This document shows, one piece after another, positions 31,044-35,024 of a DNA stretch of 63,499 nucleotides. The DNA lies in the NCBI GenBank assembly GCA_039090665.1, contig JAWCSL010000003.1:1-63499 (forward strand). Direction: 5' to 3'. The DNA is from Candidatus Aenigmatarchaeota archaeon. Its GTDB lineage: Archaea; Aenigmatarchaeota; Aenigmatarchaeia; CG10238-14; SCSR01. Positions within the stretch are counted from its first letter, which is position 1, and every line of letters begins with the position of its first letter. The notes beneath the pieces are model-generated. The model saw only the letters and a list, made by a program, of their open reading frames with translations, ran no database searches and had not been told where the DNA came from. A program made the translations under genes and the position numbers.

Positions 31044-31871
31044 TCAGCTATATATTTCTCTTGCATTTCTTATAATCAGTTTCAATTTCTTCTTAGAAAT
31101 TCCAGTCTTTCTTTGCAGCTCATCAACATCTTCCTCCAAGAGTTGCTTTATAGTAACAATTCCGGCATCACCAAGCTTTTGCTCTGTCTTAAAATCAAGA
31201 TTTTTCAGTAAGGTTATTGGGTAAAGCTTTTTCTCTTCTATCATGTCTTCAAGACCAGCATCTGCAGGTGCTTTCCACCCAATGTAATCTATTCCCTTGC
31301 ACTCAGCATAAATCAAAGCATGGTCAGAAAATTTCGTGTTGCAGATTACCAAAGCTTTTGAAAAATTGTAGCCATGTCTTCCAAGCTTGAAACCCTCCTT
31401 CAAATCTTCCAGCCTTGCTTGTGTTTCAAGCATGACATCAACTCCAGTGTAAGTGTGAGGTTGAAAGTGGTGCTTGACTTCGACAAAAAAAGTTTCAGTA
31501 CCACGAATTGCAATAGCATCCACTTCATGTGTTATACACTTTCCAGGAACAAGCAAATTCGTTTGTACAGAATAACCATACTCTTTCAAAAGCAAAGCGA
31601 CAAAAATCTCAAAATCTGGTTTTGGTCTTAACCTGCTTATAGCTTCTCTCAAATCTATTCTGTGCTTGAGTTCAGGCTTGAAATCTTTTAGGTAAGTGAA
31701 GATCATCTTCAAGATTTTTTTGGTCGGTATTCCATCGTAAACCTCTTTTTCAATTTTGTTGGCAACAGCTTGGGCTTGCTCCAAGCTAGCATGAAGCCTT
31801 AAACAAGTGTTTATGATTTTGCTCTTGTCGAAAGGCTGTCTTCTTCCGTCAAACTTTGTAACAAAAACCAT
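31044..31871 (-). CDS. ATP-cone + Mrr-like restriction-endonuclease fold + HhH protein
   Basis: VTKFDGRRQPFDKSKI (ATP cone); FEIFVALLL...EVDAIA...VEVKH (PD-D/ExK); C-terminal AGIVTIKQLL. Confidence 0.82.
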   Translation of the reverse strand: MVFVTKFDGRRQPFDKSKIINTCLRLHASLEQAQAVANKIEKEVYDGIPTKKILKMIFTYLKDFKPELKHRIDLREAISRLRPKPDFEIFVALLLKEYGYSVQTNLLVPGKCITHEVDAIAIRGTETFFVEVKHHFQPHTYTGVDVMLETQARLEDLKEGFKLGRHGYNFSKALVICNTKFSDHALIYAECKGIDYIGWKAPADAGLEDMIEEKKLYPITLLKNLDFKTEQKLGDAGIVTIKQLLEEDVDELQRKTGISKKKLKLIIRNAREIYS

Positions 31872-31943
31872 TTCAATTCTTTTTAAAATTTTGGATTTTG
31901 TGTAAAAAATATTTAAGTTATTTTAGCCAACAAAATAACAAAT

Positions 31944-32390
31944 ATGGCCAAATTTTCACAAGAAGCCCTAAAACTAATTTTGCGGTATGGTATGGGATGC
32001 ATTCCTGAAGAAAAAAGGGAGAAAGCAAAAGAGGCTATCTTTGAAAACTGTACAGAAGAACTTGTGAAGGAATTGCTGCCAGAAGCATGCCAAAATTTGG
32101 AAGCTCTTGTGCCAAATGAAATAAAAGAAAATCATGTGAGAAAATATTTTTTAGATCTACACACAAAAATAGCAAGTATAACTGAGAAGATGAATTGCAC
32201 AGCTTTCAAAGCTAAAATCATCAAGTCTTACGGCGATGAGTGTGTAGTAGTTTACAACAACAGAACAGAAAAAGTTAAGTGTTTAGAAAAATTTGATGTT
32301 GGCGATGTGGTTATAGTGCATCGTAGCTATGTGGTTGAAAAATATGATGAAAATCTACACGCTTGGCAATCCTTTGTTGAAAAAAGATAG
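31944..32390 (+). CDS. Hydrogenase-locus protein with HypC-like C-terminal OB segment
   Basis: DVGDVVIVHRSYVVEK resembles HypC VGDYVLVH; adjacent to hydrogenase genes. Confidence 0.6.
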   Translation: MAKFSQEALKLILRYGMGCIPEEKREKAKEAIFENCTEELVKELLPEACQNLEALVPNEIKENHVRKYFLDLHTKIASITEKMNCTAFKAKIIKSYGDECVVVYNNRTEKVKCLEKFDVGDVVIVHRSYVVEKYDENLHAWQSFVEKR

Positions 32391-32712
32391 GTTGGCTCTT
32401 GAAGTAGCAGAAGAGCTTAAAAACAAACTGGAAGTCGAGTTTGTGGAATTCGATCCAATAGAAACAATTGAAGGTGATGTTTGGTTAATGGATGTGGTCA
32501 AAGGAGTAAAAGATGTGGAATTGATAACTGAAGACCATTTTGAGAAAAACAAAGTTTATTCAATGCACGATTTAGACTTATCACACATGCTTGCTCTTTT
32601 GAAAAAGACAGGAAAAATAAAAAGCTTTAAACTGATAGCAATTCCTTTTGGAATGAAGAAAAAAGAAGCAGCAAAGAAAGTGGAGAGATTGCTCAAATCT
32701 TTATCCATTTAA
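32344..32712 (+). CDS. Divergent hydrogenase maturation protease-like protein
   Basis: LGNPLLKKD, LMDVV, SMHDL motifs align with HycI/HyaD-type motifs. Confidence 0.7.
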   Translation: MMKIYTLGNPLLKKDRLALEVAEELKNKLEVEFVEFDPIETIEGDVWLMDVVKGVKDVELITEDHFEKNKVYSMHDLDLSHMLALLKKTGKIKSFKLIAIPFGMKKKEAAKKVERLLKSLSI

Positions 32713-33982
32713 TCTTAAGGAAGTGACTTGCACAGCTGAAGCAAGGATCATAAGCCCTTATCAACCTTTCAATAGCATGCTGCATTTCATGTTTGTCTTT
32801 TCCTTCATCCAGAAGCTTTTGAACCAAATCTTTTATATCTTTTTCCATCTGTATCTGGTTTTGGGCAGTCGGTATTATGAAATTCGCATACTTGACTTTA
32901 CCTTCTTCATTCAAATAGACCATGTGATACAATGTGCCGCGCGGTGCTTCAACCACACCTATCCCTTCAGTTGCTTTAACTGAAATTTTTGGCAAATCTT
33001 CTTGCTTGAAACTAAAGTTTTCGAATATTGATATACAAGAATCTATCGAGTGCAATATTTCTATCGCTTGAGCAAGATTGTTGTCGTAAATGTTGTGAGA
33101 AGGAAACCTTTCCAAGATATTTCCAACACTTTTTATTGTTTTCGGATGTAAAGCTACTTTGTTGAGATTCAGTCTAGCCAAGGCACCAACCATGTATTCT
33201 TTACCTTCAAACTGAAAGCTTGTTGCTTGTGAATAAGGTATGACAACACGGTCAACAAAATCAGCAAAATTTTCTTCAGGGATTACAGTCCCTTCAAAAG
33301 TTCTTATTTCGCCTTCTATGAAGTTGAAGCTTGGGCTACAGAGTGCCACATAATTTCTTTCTTTTTCAAAACTCAATTTACATTTAGCCAATATATCTAT
33401 TAGCTCTAGAGCTTTTTTCCTCACATTTTTCAATTTGCTTACGGCTTCTTCTATTTCTTCTTCAGATGGAACTCTTGAAAAACCACCAATTCTCACTTCA
33501 GTTGGATGCACAGCCCTGCCGCCTATAATTTTGCACACAAAGTTTCCAGCATCTTTGACATCAAAAGCATCTTTTATCAAGTTTGGTTGCTCGTCTGAAA
33601 GCTCAAGCAAAGAATCTTTTTCAAAGATATCTGGAAGAGTGAAAAAATAAAGATGCATGGCATGGTCTCTTATCATTAAGCCAAACGCTAAAAGCTTCTT
33701 CATCACCATCGCTTGTTCACTAACTCTCACCCTCAAGCCTTTCTCTAAAGCTTCTGTTGATGCAAGAACATGTGCTATACTACATGTTCCACAAATTCTA
33801 GAAACGAATTGAGGCACAGCCAAATATTCTTTCTTTCTAGTTGCTTGTGTGAAAAATCTCTTGTTTTCTGCAACTTTCAGTTTAACATCTTTAACTTTTC
33901 CTCCAGAAACTTCTACTTCTAACTTAGCATGTCCTTCTGTCTTGCTTATCTTCTCTATTCCTATTTGGAAATCAGTGTGCAT
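32693..33982 (-). CDS. NiFe hydrogenase large subunit (group 3b-like alpha)
   Basis: KTEGH, SRICGTCSIAH, GGRAVHP, EAPRGTLYH, RAYDPCFSCASH plus a 9-aa extension. Confidence 0.93.
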   Translation of the reverse strand: MHTDFQIGIEKISKTEGHAKLEVEVSGGKVKDVKLKVAENKRFFTQATRKKEYLAVPQFVSRICGTCSIAHVLASTEALEKGLRVRVSEQAMVMKKLLAFGLMIRDHAMHLYFFTLPDIFEKDSLLELSDEQPNLIKDAFDVKDAGNFVCKIIGGRAVHPTEVRIGGFSRVPSEEEIEEAVSKLKNVRKKALELIDILAKCKLSFEKERNYVALCSPSFNFIEGEIRTFEGTVIPEENFADFVDRVVIPYSQATSFQFEGKEYMVGALARLNLNKVALHPKTIKSVGNILERFPSHNIYDNNLAQAIEILHSIDSCISIFENFSFKQEDLPKISVKATEGIGVVEAPRGTLYHMVYLNEEGKVKYANFIIPTAQNQIQMEKDIKDLVQKLLDEGKDKHEMQHAIERLIRAYDPCFSCASHFLKIKWIKI

Positions 33983-34457
33983 TCAAAACACCAAACTCTT
34001 TCAGATATTTTTCAATCACAGCTATCATTTTATCTTCCAGCATAGGGCATCCAGGTACTTCTTCATCTATTTTTACTAAATTTTTTGGAGCAATCGCTTT
34101 TTCCATATGTCCAAATTTCTTCATGATAGGTTTTATCTCTTCCATTTCTTCCTTATCCAAGAAATTCCTTGCATTTGAAGGCGAGCCAGTGATAGCACAA
34201 CTACCAACTGCCACAACCTTCTTGCTCACTTTCCTTATCTTTTCAAGTAACTTTTTTTCTTTTTCAGTAGAGATAACACCTTCTACAAAAGCTACATCTA
34301 TTTCAGAAAGTTCTTCTCTTGTTTGGATTAAACGAAAAGCTTTGAAATCTATCAAATCTTTCCATTCCCTATATTTTTTGTTCAATAGTTCCAAGAAGCT
34401 TATGCTACAGCCTTCATCACATGTGAAAGAAATGAATGCAATTTCTAACCTTTTCAT
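33972..34457 (-). CDS. NiFe hydrogenase small (delta) subunit, proximal-cluster domain only
   Basis: FTCDEGC, VEGVI, AVGSCA, VPGCP; ends 23 aa after GCP. Confidence 0.88.
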   Translation of the reverse strand: MKRLEIAFISFTCDEGCSISFLELLNKKYREWKDLIDFKAFRLIQTREELSEIDVAFVEGVISTEKEKKLLEKIRKVSKKVVAVGSCAITGSPSNARNFLDKEEMEEIKPIMKKFGHMEKAIAPKNLVKIDEEVPGCPMLEDKMIAVIEKYLKEFGVLNAH

Positions 34458-34529
34458 ATTTAATTTTTTACTTCTCTATTTTATTTCTTTTGAGTCAATC
34501 TTATCAATTTTTAAAGCTAAATTTATTCT

Positions 34530-35024
34530 ATGAATCCGAAAGCCTTACTTGAGGCTGCCCTTTTTGTTTCTGATAAGCCTTTAAGCGTAGAAAAGCTTTC
34601 GAAAATTCTGAACATAAGTTCTGAAGAAGTGAAAAAGTTTCTGCTTAAGATTCAAACTGAGCTTCAGCAAGAAGACCATGGTATAGAGCTTGTGGAAACT
34701 CCAGAAGGTTTTGAGCTAAGGGTGAAACAAGAATATAGAGAAAAAGTTGCTAAACTTGCTCCTTTTGCTGATTTGAGCGATGGTATGATGAGGACTTTAG
34801 CGATAGTTGCTGCCAAGCAGCCTATAAAGCAATCTATAATTGTGAAAATTCAAGGAAACAAAGCTTACGGTTACATTGCTAGCTTGGAAGAAAAAGGTTT
34901 GATAAAGAGTGAAAAATTTGGAAGGACAAAGCTTCTCTCAACTACTTCAGACTTTGAAAAATATTTCGGCAAGAGCAGCGAGGAGATAAAGAGGATTTTG
35001 AGCGAAGCTGAGAAGAAAGCTTAA
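34530..35024 (+). CDS. scpB: SMC-Scp complex subunit ScpB
   Basis: LEAALFVS, METLA-like MRTLAIVA..QPI, GRTKLLSTT..FEKYFG. Confidence 0.92.
   Translation: MNPKALLEAALFVSDKPLSVEKLSKILNISSEEVKKFLLKIQTELQQEDHGIELVETPEGFELRVKQEYREKVAKLAPFADLSDGMMRTLAIVAAKQPIKQSIIVKIQGNKAYGYIASLEEKGLIKSEKFGRTKLLSTTSDFEKYFGKSSEEIKRILSEAEKKA

Follow-up and report, generated by a model that had tools for sequence, protein, structure and literature searches.

The window analysed here, the 63,499-nucleotide contig JAWCSL010000003.1 of a Candidatus Aenigmatarchaeota archaeon (assembly GCA_039090665.1), contains a compact locus that encodes the two subunits of a predicted [NiFe]-hydrogenase along with two putative maturation proteins. 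The source genome comprises 620,606 bp in 15 contigs, of which the window is C9, with a completeness of 90.6% and a G+C content of ~34%. Four genes lie between a gene for an ATP-cone/Mrr-type nuclease (31044..31871, minus strand) and scpB (34530..35024, plus strand):

33972..34457, minus strand: small subunit, 161 aa, matching PF01058 only
32693..33982, minus strand: [NiFe] large subunit, 429 aa, matching PF00374
31944..32390, plus strand: two-domain HypC-like chaperone, 148 aa, matching PF01455 at residues 85-137
32329..32712, plus strand: short HycI/HybD-like maturation endopeptidase, 127 aa, assigned from weak PF01750/TIGR00072 matches and synteny
31900..34505, no strand: the four-gene 2.6-kb cassette, approximate limits from presence and absence within the genus

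The small-subunit gene and the start of the large-subunit gene share 11 nt. The protease-like gene is convergent with the large-subunit gene, and the 3' ends of the two share exactly 20 nt (32693-32712). This overlap, the 161-aa length of the small subunit and its motifs CDEGC and GCP had been described in the initial annotation, and re-reading of the open reading frames (ORFs) and motifs bore out all of its statements on the sequence. Neither a beta nor a gamma hydrogenase subunit gene is present in the window, as it had also stated for the neighbourhood of the pair.

The hydrogenase subunits

The large subunit matches PF00374 at 104.4 bits against a gathering cut-off of 25.8 and carries the metal-binding motifs RICGTCSIAH near the N-terminus and DPCFSCASH at the C-terminus, followed by a 9-residue tail after His420 that would be the part removed by the protease. 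Across 16 family members the invariant residues are E16, which is the proton-transfer glutamate, R62, the isoleucine next to it, C64, the following glycine and threonine, C67, H71, P347-R348-G349, D412-P413-C414, C417 and H420, and the tail residues F421, L422 and W426 are likewise invariant. The best NCBIfam models, ShyA (277 bits) and HydA (223 bits), were both matched below their equivalog cut-offs (277 versus 700), and in the PDB the closest sequences are the group 3b alpha subunits 5yxy_A of Thermococcus kodakarensis and 9nez_D of Pyrococcus furiosus (E about 1e-61). The group 3b label given earlier thus stands for the large subunit, which is nearest to 3b alpha subunits, but neither the beta and gamma subunits nor the three-cluster delta subunit of that group are present, and on sequence the assignment of the enzyme to group 3b is only approximate.

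The small subunit matches PF01058 at 71.8 bits and no other Pfam domain; its GCP motif occupies residues 136-138, after which 23 residues remain. It covers the 261-position NCBIfam model for the delta subunit of soluble hydrogenase I (SHI) only at positions 4-151, and therefore the medial/distal Fe-S domain is missing (the delta models for SHI and soluble hydrogenase II, SHII, have 240-261 positions). An AlphaFold2 (AF2) model of the protein, with a mean predicted local distance difference test (pLDDT) score of 95.8, found its best structural matches in HydS (7t2r_E, TM 0.81/0.74), HoxY (5xf9_C) and the N-terminal half of the P. furiosus SHI delta subunit. Since HydS and HoxY are single-cluster subunits, the small subunit would be a complete proximal-cluster domain and nothing more, with the proximal [4Fe-4S] cluster as its only predicted cluster. 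The single Pfam domain, the missing distal domain and the structural matches all agree with the earlier proposal of a two-subunit enzyme whose small subunit is confined to the proximal cluster.

Several characterized enzymes resemble the pair in part. SHI and SHII of P. furiosus and T. kodakarensis (PDB 9nez, 9e15, 5yxy) provide the best sequence matches of both subunits and share the length and motifs of the large subunit and the flavodoxin-like proximal-cluster domain. These enzymes form alpha-beta-gamma-delta tetramers, in which the delta subunit measures about 260 aa and holds three clusters and a C-x-G-C motif and the gamma subunit is an FAD/NADPH subunit, whereas the present enzyme has no beta or gamma subunit, its delta subunit ends 23 residues after GCP, and Asp takes the place of the first Cys. 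A small subunit of 160-190 aa with the proximal cluster only is found in HoxY (group 3d, 5xf9_C) and in HydS of the electron-bifurcating NiFe-HydABCSL enzyme (7t2r_E), and these enzymes show that a proximal cluster can feed a flavin/Fe-S partner module directly. They dock on NuoE/F/G-type diaphorase subunits encoded in the same operon, but no such genes lie near the present cassette. NuoB/PSST of complex I and the small subunits of group 4 hydrogenases have the same fold as the present small subunit.

The first motif of the small subunit reads F-T-C13-D14-E15-G16-C17, and the candidate cluster ligands by alignment are C13/D14/E15/C17, C87 and C137. Both a phmmer comparison with the P. furiosus SHI delta subunit and a MAFFT alignment with the canonical delta subunits of the same phylum aligned T12-C13-D14-E15-G16-C17 to T-[GS]-C-x-G-C, placing Asp14 at the position of the canonical first Cys and identifying Cys17 as the canonical second Cys. 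A first reading of 120 homologs as a family-wide Cys-to-Asp change was dropped when a wider alignment revealed CCEDS, CDEGC, [SGA]DEGC, CSEDS and CCEGC forms. Among 197 short small subunits, positions 13-17 were distributed as follows:

CCEDS/N: 57 of 197 small subunits
CDEGC, the motif of the present protein: 48 of 197
[SGA]DEGC: 62 of 197
CSEDS/N: 11 of 197
CCEGC: 8 of 197

Glu15 (188/191), Cys87 (192/197) and Cys137 (197/197) are near-invariant, and the Cys retained in the first motif differs by lineage: 13 and 14, 13 and 17, 17 alone, or 13 alone. In lineages with one Cys, therefore, a carboxylate (Asp14, Glu15 or Asp16) would complete the site, or the site would have three ligands. The basal Nanoarchaeota branch of the large-subunit tree carries CCEGC, in which the canonical pair is joined by an additional Cys at position 13, and in relatives with CCEDS the Cys13 position is part of a tandem Cys pair. 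A tandem C-C-E with an extra Cys at the Cys13 position occurs in many hyd2 small subunits (the clade is introduced below), which presumably resembles the CCxxE of NuoB and its tandem-Cys ligation of cluster N2; the present protein differs in having C-D-E-G-C and a true Ni-Fe-binding large-subunit partner. The suggestion of an Asp ligand was correct insofar as Asp14 aligns with the canonical first Cys, but an Asp ligand is not required here, because Cys13 leaves four Cys (13, 17, 87 and 137) available. From the alignments, Asp14 ligation in the present protein is possible and not required; the cluster would be held by C17, C87, C137 and either C13 or D14, of which C13 is slightly more likely. 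One further short-type small subunit, P0121 (548 aa), is split by an intein with a LAGLIDADG domain (PF14890, PF14528).

The hyd2 clade and the cassette

A scan of related loci, with one genome per species, returned 512 loci with a relative of the large subunit, of which the best 80 (48-76% identity) were examined; these come from five DPANN phyla, many lineages of the candidate phyla radiation (CPR) and Nitrososphaera(ceae). In all 80 of the best loci a small subunit of 151-190 aa adjoins the large subunit (in two cases as a fusion with a protein resembling thioredoxin reductase, TrxR), and in none of the 80 is a beta or gamma gene adjacent. Weakly gamma-like ORFs (27-28% identity) lie 2-8 kb away in the CPR loci L095 and L125. 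There were 183 homologs of the small subunit, and of the 120 listed, nearly all measure 155-165 aa (Aenigmatarchaeota, Micrarchaeota, Diapherotrites). The same phylum also has canonical four-subunit 3b loci, in which the beta subunit contains Fer4_22, the gamma subunit contains NAD_binding_1 and DHODB_Fe-S_bind, and the delta subunit measures 248-329 aa; the large subunits of these loci share only 33-40% identity with the present one. In a FastTree tree rooted on these canonical loci and read for topology only, the short-subunit clade is monophyletic, and CPR loci of the same architecture (48-55% large-subunit identity) form one clade with the present enzyme. The clade spans Aenigmatarchaeota, Micrarchaeota, Iainarchaeota, Nanoarchaeota, CPR and Nitrososphaera.

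The enzyme is not unique, as a clade with truncated small subunits has already been published as hyd2. The relevant passages of Jaffe et al. (2020, BMC Biol 18:69, PMC7304191) describe hyd2 in CPR as a 3b-related large subunit with a small subunit truncated to a mean of 164 aa and no co-located beta or gamma genes. By this description the present sequences identify the enzyme as a hyd2 member: they share the long-branch large subunit next to group 3b, the truncated small subunit (161 aa compared with the mean of 164), the lack of co-located beta and gamma genes and a nearby family homologous to HypC, and PF07992 flavoproteins occur in some hyd2 contexts described there. The initial annotation had treated the small subunit as a local truncation, which does not hold given that the short form is standard in the published clade and present in 80/80 of the best related loci. 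It had allowed that its account would fall if the short delta form proved standard for the clade and partner subunits and hyp genes were found elsewhere; the former is the case, but the partner subunits and hyp genes were not found elsewhere in the genome. In the passages considered here, the hyd2 paper treats the clade as CPR-specific, whereas the present genome belongs to Aenigmatarchaeota, and these passages do not mention ligand-motif variants, Hyp absence, a two-domain HypC-like protein, TrxR fusions or a cassette insertion/deletion; the word “maturation” is absent from the text of that paper. “3b-type” hydrogenases have been listed in hot-spring Aenigmarchaeota (Li et al. 2021, PMC8407114). 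New here are the genus-level insertion/deletion of the cassette, the pattern of Hyp absence, the restriction of the two-domain HypC-like protein to HypD-negative genomes and the TrxR-like fusions.

The Nitrososphaera loci deserve separate mention. In the metagenome-assembled genomes of Nitrososphaera/Nitrososphaeraceae, a lineage of ammonia oxidizers, that carry loci L060, L064-L068, L070, L072, L073 and L117, hyd2 with the CCEDS motif lies amid genes for HypD, an AIR-synthase (HypE-like) protein and HypF; binning errors are possible in these genomes. A 2023 review of the metabolism of ammonia-oxidizing archaea mentions only the four-subunit 3b enzyme in Nitrosocaldus and Ehr complexes in other members of the group (PMC10432482).

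The limits of the cassette were defined by comparison within the genus. Seven other genomes of the same genus match its flanks at 70-95% DNA identity. In six of the seven, the nuclease-gene and scpB flanks are 88-702 bp apart with no cassette between them, while the seventh (G208) contains the right flank only, at a contig end. The boundaries fall in intergenic DNA at about 31900 and 34505; alignment of the junctions with the empty sister sites showed AT-rich intergenic DNA with no readable target-site duplication. The nearest cassette, in genome G048 of another genus, has 76% large-subunit identity and the same four genes in the same order within unrelated flanks. Compared with the G048 cassette, nonsynonymous divergence (dN) is 0.16-0.24 and synonymous divergence (dS) is saturated, such that dN/dS is not computable for three of the four genes. 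The occurrence of the same four genes in unrelated flanks and the low dN therefore suggest that the cassette travels and is kept as a unit. It is apparently mobile, the divergence pattern points to purifying selection, and we infer that it has a function in cells of this type. At 2.6 kb and four genes, and found in one species while its sister species cleanly lack it, the cassette is a very small test object. The locus itself was found in hot-spring metagenomes from five studies.

Putative maturation proteins and Hyp genes

The HypC-like protein matches PF01455 at 23.5 bits (cut-off 28.5) over residues 85-137 only. Its AF2 model (pLDDT 93.7) consists of a five-helix N-terminal domain and an OB barrel, and the barrel (residues 86-148) superimposes on T. 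kodakarensis HypC (2z1c_A) with Z 8.5 and a root-mean-square deviation of 2.5 over 63 aligned residues. Foldseek matched the barrel with a probability of 1.00 and TMt of 0.62-0.90 to structures that include HypC in HypCD(E) complexes. The earlier description of a HypC-like fusion is thereby confirmed and specified as an extra five-helix N-terminal domain joined to a HypC OB-fold. Alignment of 23 relatives identified Y15, C19, A48, Y68, H73, C85, H126 and E132 as invariant, of which C19 and H73 sit in the extra N-terminal domain. By position, C85 and H126 look like what we take to be Cys2 and His51 of HypC in E. coli numbering. The protein thus shares with HypC, HybG and HupF an OB-fold with a conserved Cys and His, but it does not begin with Met-Cys as HypC does, since 84 residues, folded as a helical domain that contains Cys19 and His73, precede Cys85; it also differs from those proteins in that its genome has no HypD and its match lies below the Pfam cut-off. 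A profile built from the family and run against 1.84 billion representatives retrieved 414 clusters with E<=1e-10; most of these are full-length proteins of 150-190 aa. For the N-terminal domain no usable match came from the protein atlas, and in fold searches, which were made with the whole protein, the matches were taken up by the OB-fold domain.

The protease-like ORF matches PF01750 at 18 bits (cut-off 23) and TIGR00072 at 27.3 bits (cut-off 47.45), and phmmer found no match to it in the PDB. It encodes 127 aa from the first ATG, or about 121 aa if the start is MKIY (32347). Its relatives have in common the motifs GNPL..(E/K)D, (L/M)D(V/T)V and S.HD.D, which were identified by eye without an alignment to solved proteases. 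In almost every one of the 20 + 80 related loci a homolog adjoins the large-subunit gene in convergent orientation, and the protease is the most constant neighbour of the large subunit, being convergent in at least 66 of the 80 best loci. In locus L034 (9312-10151, minus strand) the HypC-like protein and the protease are fused in one 279-aa ORF.

The initial annotation had found hypABDEF absent from the window, and a genome-wide search gave the same result. No gene for HypD, HypA or HypB was detected in the 620-kb genome, which is 90.6% complete. The best “HypE” match is AIR-synthase-like and scores 122 bits against a cut-off of 251.6, about equally on ThiL, without the C-terminal Cys; the “HypF” match is of 27 bits and covers a Kae1-like part only. 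Both candidates were rejected as members of paralogous families below the cut-offs. The only HypC-type gene of the genome is the two-domain gene in the window, and the canonical Hyp-dependent maturation set (HypC-HypD with HypE/HypF) is therefore incomplete in this assembly.

The same pattern extends through the family. In a sample of the phylum, a relative of the large subunit is encoded in 43 of 201 genomes, and neither HypD nor HypF was found in any of these 43. HypD is present in seven genomes of the sample, five of which also have HypF; the five HypD-positive genomes checked (G197, G025, G058, G187 and G192; loci L129-L133) carry a different NiFe large subunit, with ORFs of 387-489 aa. 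In G058 and G197 this large subunit is on the same contig as HypD and HypF. Neither protein is encoded by OY969902.1, a closed archaeal chromosome of 853 kb that carries hyd2, or by four other genomes. Among 50 further hyd2-bearing genomes, HypD was found in 0/35 from DPANN, 3/11 from CPR and 4/4 from Nitrososphaera. This family-wide pattern argues against an assembly gap as the reason for the absence of hyp genes. Genes for HypD, AIR-synthase (HypE-like) and HypF surround hyd2 in the Nitrososphaera loci and in the CPR loci L116 and L126, while L077 has only HypD in the stretch fetched; the clade would therefore be built for the standard cofactor. Because these Nitrososphaera and CPR members lie inside hypDEF clusters, we infer by analogy that the present enzyme is active with a standard NiFe(CN)2CO site.

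Of the 50 hyd2 genomes, 23 encode the two-domain HypC-like protein. All 23 are HypD-negative, and the protein is found in 0/7 of the genomes with HypD, which have only a short canonical HypC adjoining HypD. The pattern crosses phyla and domains, although the relatives that compose it are not independent samples. Beside the two-domain gene, several Hyp-less genomes have a second short HypC-type ORF of 54-78 aa (G211:C3:8930-9130, G223:C11:7938-8126, G231:C1:101366-101536, G235:C18:7943-8116 and others); none is present in this window.

Other genes recur near hyd2. A gene for a transporter of the EamA family (drug/metabolite transporter superfamily, DMT) is paired with the two-domain HypC-like gene in ~20 hyd2 loci of DPANN and CPR, for example at L062:13462-14938, L080:8124-9532, L097:11620-13037 and L110:11691-13141. 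DUF6390 (PF19927) lies beside a second EamA type in ten hyd2 loci (L081, L083:7728-8534, L086, L090, L093, L101, L102, L120, L121 and L127). In the five DUF6390 genomes tested, HypD and the two-domain HypC-like protein are both missing, and such loci may represent a third accessory context. In six Aenigmatarchaeota loci a conserved protein of 188-212 aa without a Pfam match is encoded directly beside the gene for the small subunit or the protease, at these positions:

L030:7042-7662
L031:4414-5052
L032:9642-10265
L033:6935-7510
L034:6953-7573
L043:7115-7681

As partners or maturases of the present enzyme, this ~200-aa protein, the EamA transporter and DUF6390 were rejected, since no homolog of any of them was found in the present genome.

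Candidate redox partner and proposed function

As only the proximal cluster is present, electrons would leave directly to a separate carrier, without the wire formed by beta and gamma subunits. The search for such subunits that the initial annotation had recommended was extended to the whole genome and yielded none, either by tblastn with the canonical 3b beta and gamma subunits of the same phylum or by motif scan. No ORF of at least 40 aa in the genome contains the motif CxxCxxCxxxC[PGA], and POR_N, the alpha domain of pyruvate/2-oxoacid:ferredoxin oxidoreductases, was not found in it.

A candidate partner emerged from related Aenigmatarchaeota, in which a TrxR-like flavoprotein of ~310 aa (PF07992) is fused to the small subunit or encoded near it:

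Fused at the N-terminus of the small subunit: L042:9279-10787, minus strand, the same as L108:8506-10014 (502 aa); L115:8544-9995 (483 aa); P0122; P0123
Directly adjacent to the small subunit: L039, L079, L089
Within about 3 kb: L050/L030, L054/L032, L055/L031, L034, L061-L063/L037

The hydrogenase-linked copies lack the HRR motif for NADPH and score below the TIGR01292 cut-off, and three also lack CxxC; the fusions keep CxxC and have lost HRR. They are extra paralogs beside the housekeeping TrxR of the same genomes. Ferredoxin- and deazaflavin-dependent flavin thioredoxin reductases (FFTR and DFTR) are independent of NADPH and have no HRR motif. The linked paralogs resemble them in this respect and differ in that the putative donor is the fused hydrogenase small subunit and in that some copies lack CxxC. 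No FFTR/DFTR-like paralog is encoded in the present genome. Its own TrxR, on contig C15 (L134:3130-4107), scores 357 bits against the TIGR01292 cut-off of 343.45, has CATC and HRREEFR, and is unlinked to the cassette. The TrxR link was not seen in the Micrarchaeota, Nanoarchaeota or Nitrososphaera loci; the CPR loci L093 and L120 have only a ~415-aa flavoprotein with 25-27% identity to the TrxR-like query. Because of the fusions and adjacency in relatives and the lack of ferredoxin-type genes, a TrxR-type flavoprotein is the best available candidate, although by analogy to these relatives it is only a tentative proposal, and on balance a doubtful one, that such a protein serves the present organism and links H2 to its thiol/NADPH redox balance.

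The data presented above have led us to propose a model, which we regard as probably correct, whereby the four genes form a self-contained cassette that encodes a cytoplasmic, heterodimeric [NiFe]-hydrogenase belonging to the hyd2 clade and related to group 3b. The 429-aa catalytic subunit keeps every Ni-Fe ligand together with a C-terminal tail that would be cleaved on maturation, and the 161-aa small subunit would pass electrons from its proximal cluster straight to a separate carrier. Two dedicated, convergently encoded helpers, namely a HypC-type chaperone whose extra helical domain bears Cys and His and a small endopeptidase for the C-terminus, may complete the enzyme. The Fe(CN)2CO unit would be obtained without genome-encoded HypD, HypE or HypF, either through supply by a host or by an as yet undescribed pathway that uses the two-domain HypC-like protein as scaffold or receiver. 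A more far-reaching proposal, which we put forward as possible and no better than speculative, is that hyd2 enzymes of DPANN are generally active without genome-encoded HypD/E/F, the two-domain HypC-like protein replacing the HypC-HypD scaffold by receiving Fe(CN)2CO from outside or in an undescribed assembly, and that in Aenigmatarchaeota the enzyme functions as an H2:thioredoxin/NAD(P) oxidoreductase via a TrxR-type flavoprotein. Several points weigh against the four-gene model. To our knowledge no chemistry yields Fe(CN)2CO without HypE and HypF, and an inactive or differently metallated protein is possible. Since the assembly (15 contigs) is 90.6% complete, the unassembled remainder could hold a missing partner or hyp gene; what is seen across the family counters this explanation for the hyp genes but not for the partner. 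The ferredoxin search covered the classic motif, with atypical ferredoxins, rubredoxin and flavodoxin outside its reach. The genome contains the housekeeping TrxR and no dedicated TrxR-like paralog, and the TrxR-like association is limited to Aenigmatarchaeota lineages (~12/80 loci) and so may not apply to the present cassette. The proximal-cluster ligands were assigned by alignment, and no RNA runs containing the locus are listed.

Three other explanations were weighed against this model. The pair might be unable to mature, no Fe(CN)2CO being made, and represent a decaying or neutral passenger acquired by horizontal transfer, as would fit the failure to find HypA/B/D/E/F in the genome, the presence of the cassette in only 1/8 genomes of the genus and its patchy occurrence in the phylum (43/201 genomes). 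This is very unlikely in view of the metal ligands, proton-transfer Glu, Arg of the PRG motif and cleaved tail that are invariant across orders, the low dN with saturated dS, and the two maturation genes that travel along and are themselves conserved (414 clusters of the two-domain HypC-like protein); moreover, 35 DPANN genomes share the Hyp-less arrangement, including a closed genome, and repeated neutral carriage is improbable in genomes of 0.6-1 Mb. Alternatively, the enzyme is active and receives its cofactor or partner from a host, the symbiont making the apo-subunits, the HypC-like receiver and the protease and taking up Fe(CN)2CO or reduced carriers via contact or transport. The Hyp-less state does track reduced-genome lineages, while free-living Nitrososphaera keep hypDEF beside hyd2; an EamA-family transporter gene accompanies the HypC-like gene in the ~20 related loci noted above; and DPANN archaea whose genomes measure 0.6 Mb generally depend on a host (for hot-spring Aenigmarchaeota, PMC8407114). 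Nevertheless, no cell-to-cell transfer of an organometallic Fe(CN)2CO unit is known and no EamA homolog was found in the present genome, which leaves this explanation unlikely. Somewhat less likely still is a plain ferredoxin-linked, H2-evolving fermentative hydrogenase with its exposed proximal cluster fed by a small soluble ferredoxin: a single surface-near cluster suits a diffusible carrier, and other minimal DPANN hydrogenases, the ultraminimal [FeFe] enzymes, have been read in this way (PMC11216029), but the genome has neither an ORF with the classic 4Fe-4S ferredoxin motif nor POR_N, and the natural fusions of the relatives are to a TrxR-like flavoprotein and not to ferredoxin.

If the more far-reaching proposal is true, the four-gene, 2.6-kb cassette would be the smallest transferable unit conferring [NiFe]-hydrogenase activity. 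All [NiFe]-hydrogenases characterized to date are considered to require the six Hyp proteins (review, PMC12134894), and here dozens of tiny genomes, one of them closed, contain a conserved NiFe clade without HypD or HypF, while the same clade lies inside hyp clusters in free-living Nitrososphaera. The situation mirrors that of archaea with active [FeFe] hydrogenases that lack HydEFG, which is unexplained (PMC11216029). The literature searched makes no mention of [NiFe] hydrogenases that lack Hyp proteins in DPANN or CPR, which does not show that none exists. The natural fusions of the small subunit to TrxR-like proteins also provide a concrete hypothesis for the function of hyd2, a question since 2020. 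Should the enzyme be inactive, the locus would be ordinary, one more copy of a known patchy clade.

Two features at the edges of the cassette complete the description. The left flank of the insertion site (31044-31871, minus strand) encodes a 275-aa protein in which an ATP-cone and an Mrr-type restriction-endonuclease core are followed by an AF1548-like/helix-hairpin-helix (HhH) C-terminal domain. Antisense to the small-subunit gene, a 136-aa ORF (34123-34533, plus strand) was also noted; because its composition is of low complexity, the sequence suggests a by-product of AT-rich DNA and not a gene.

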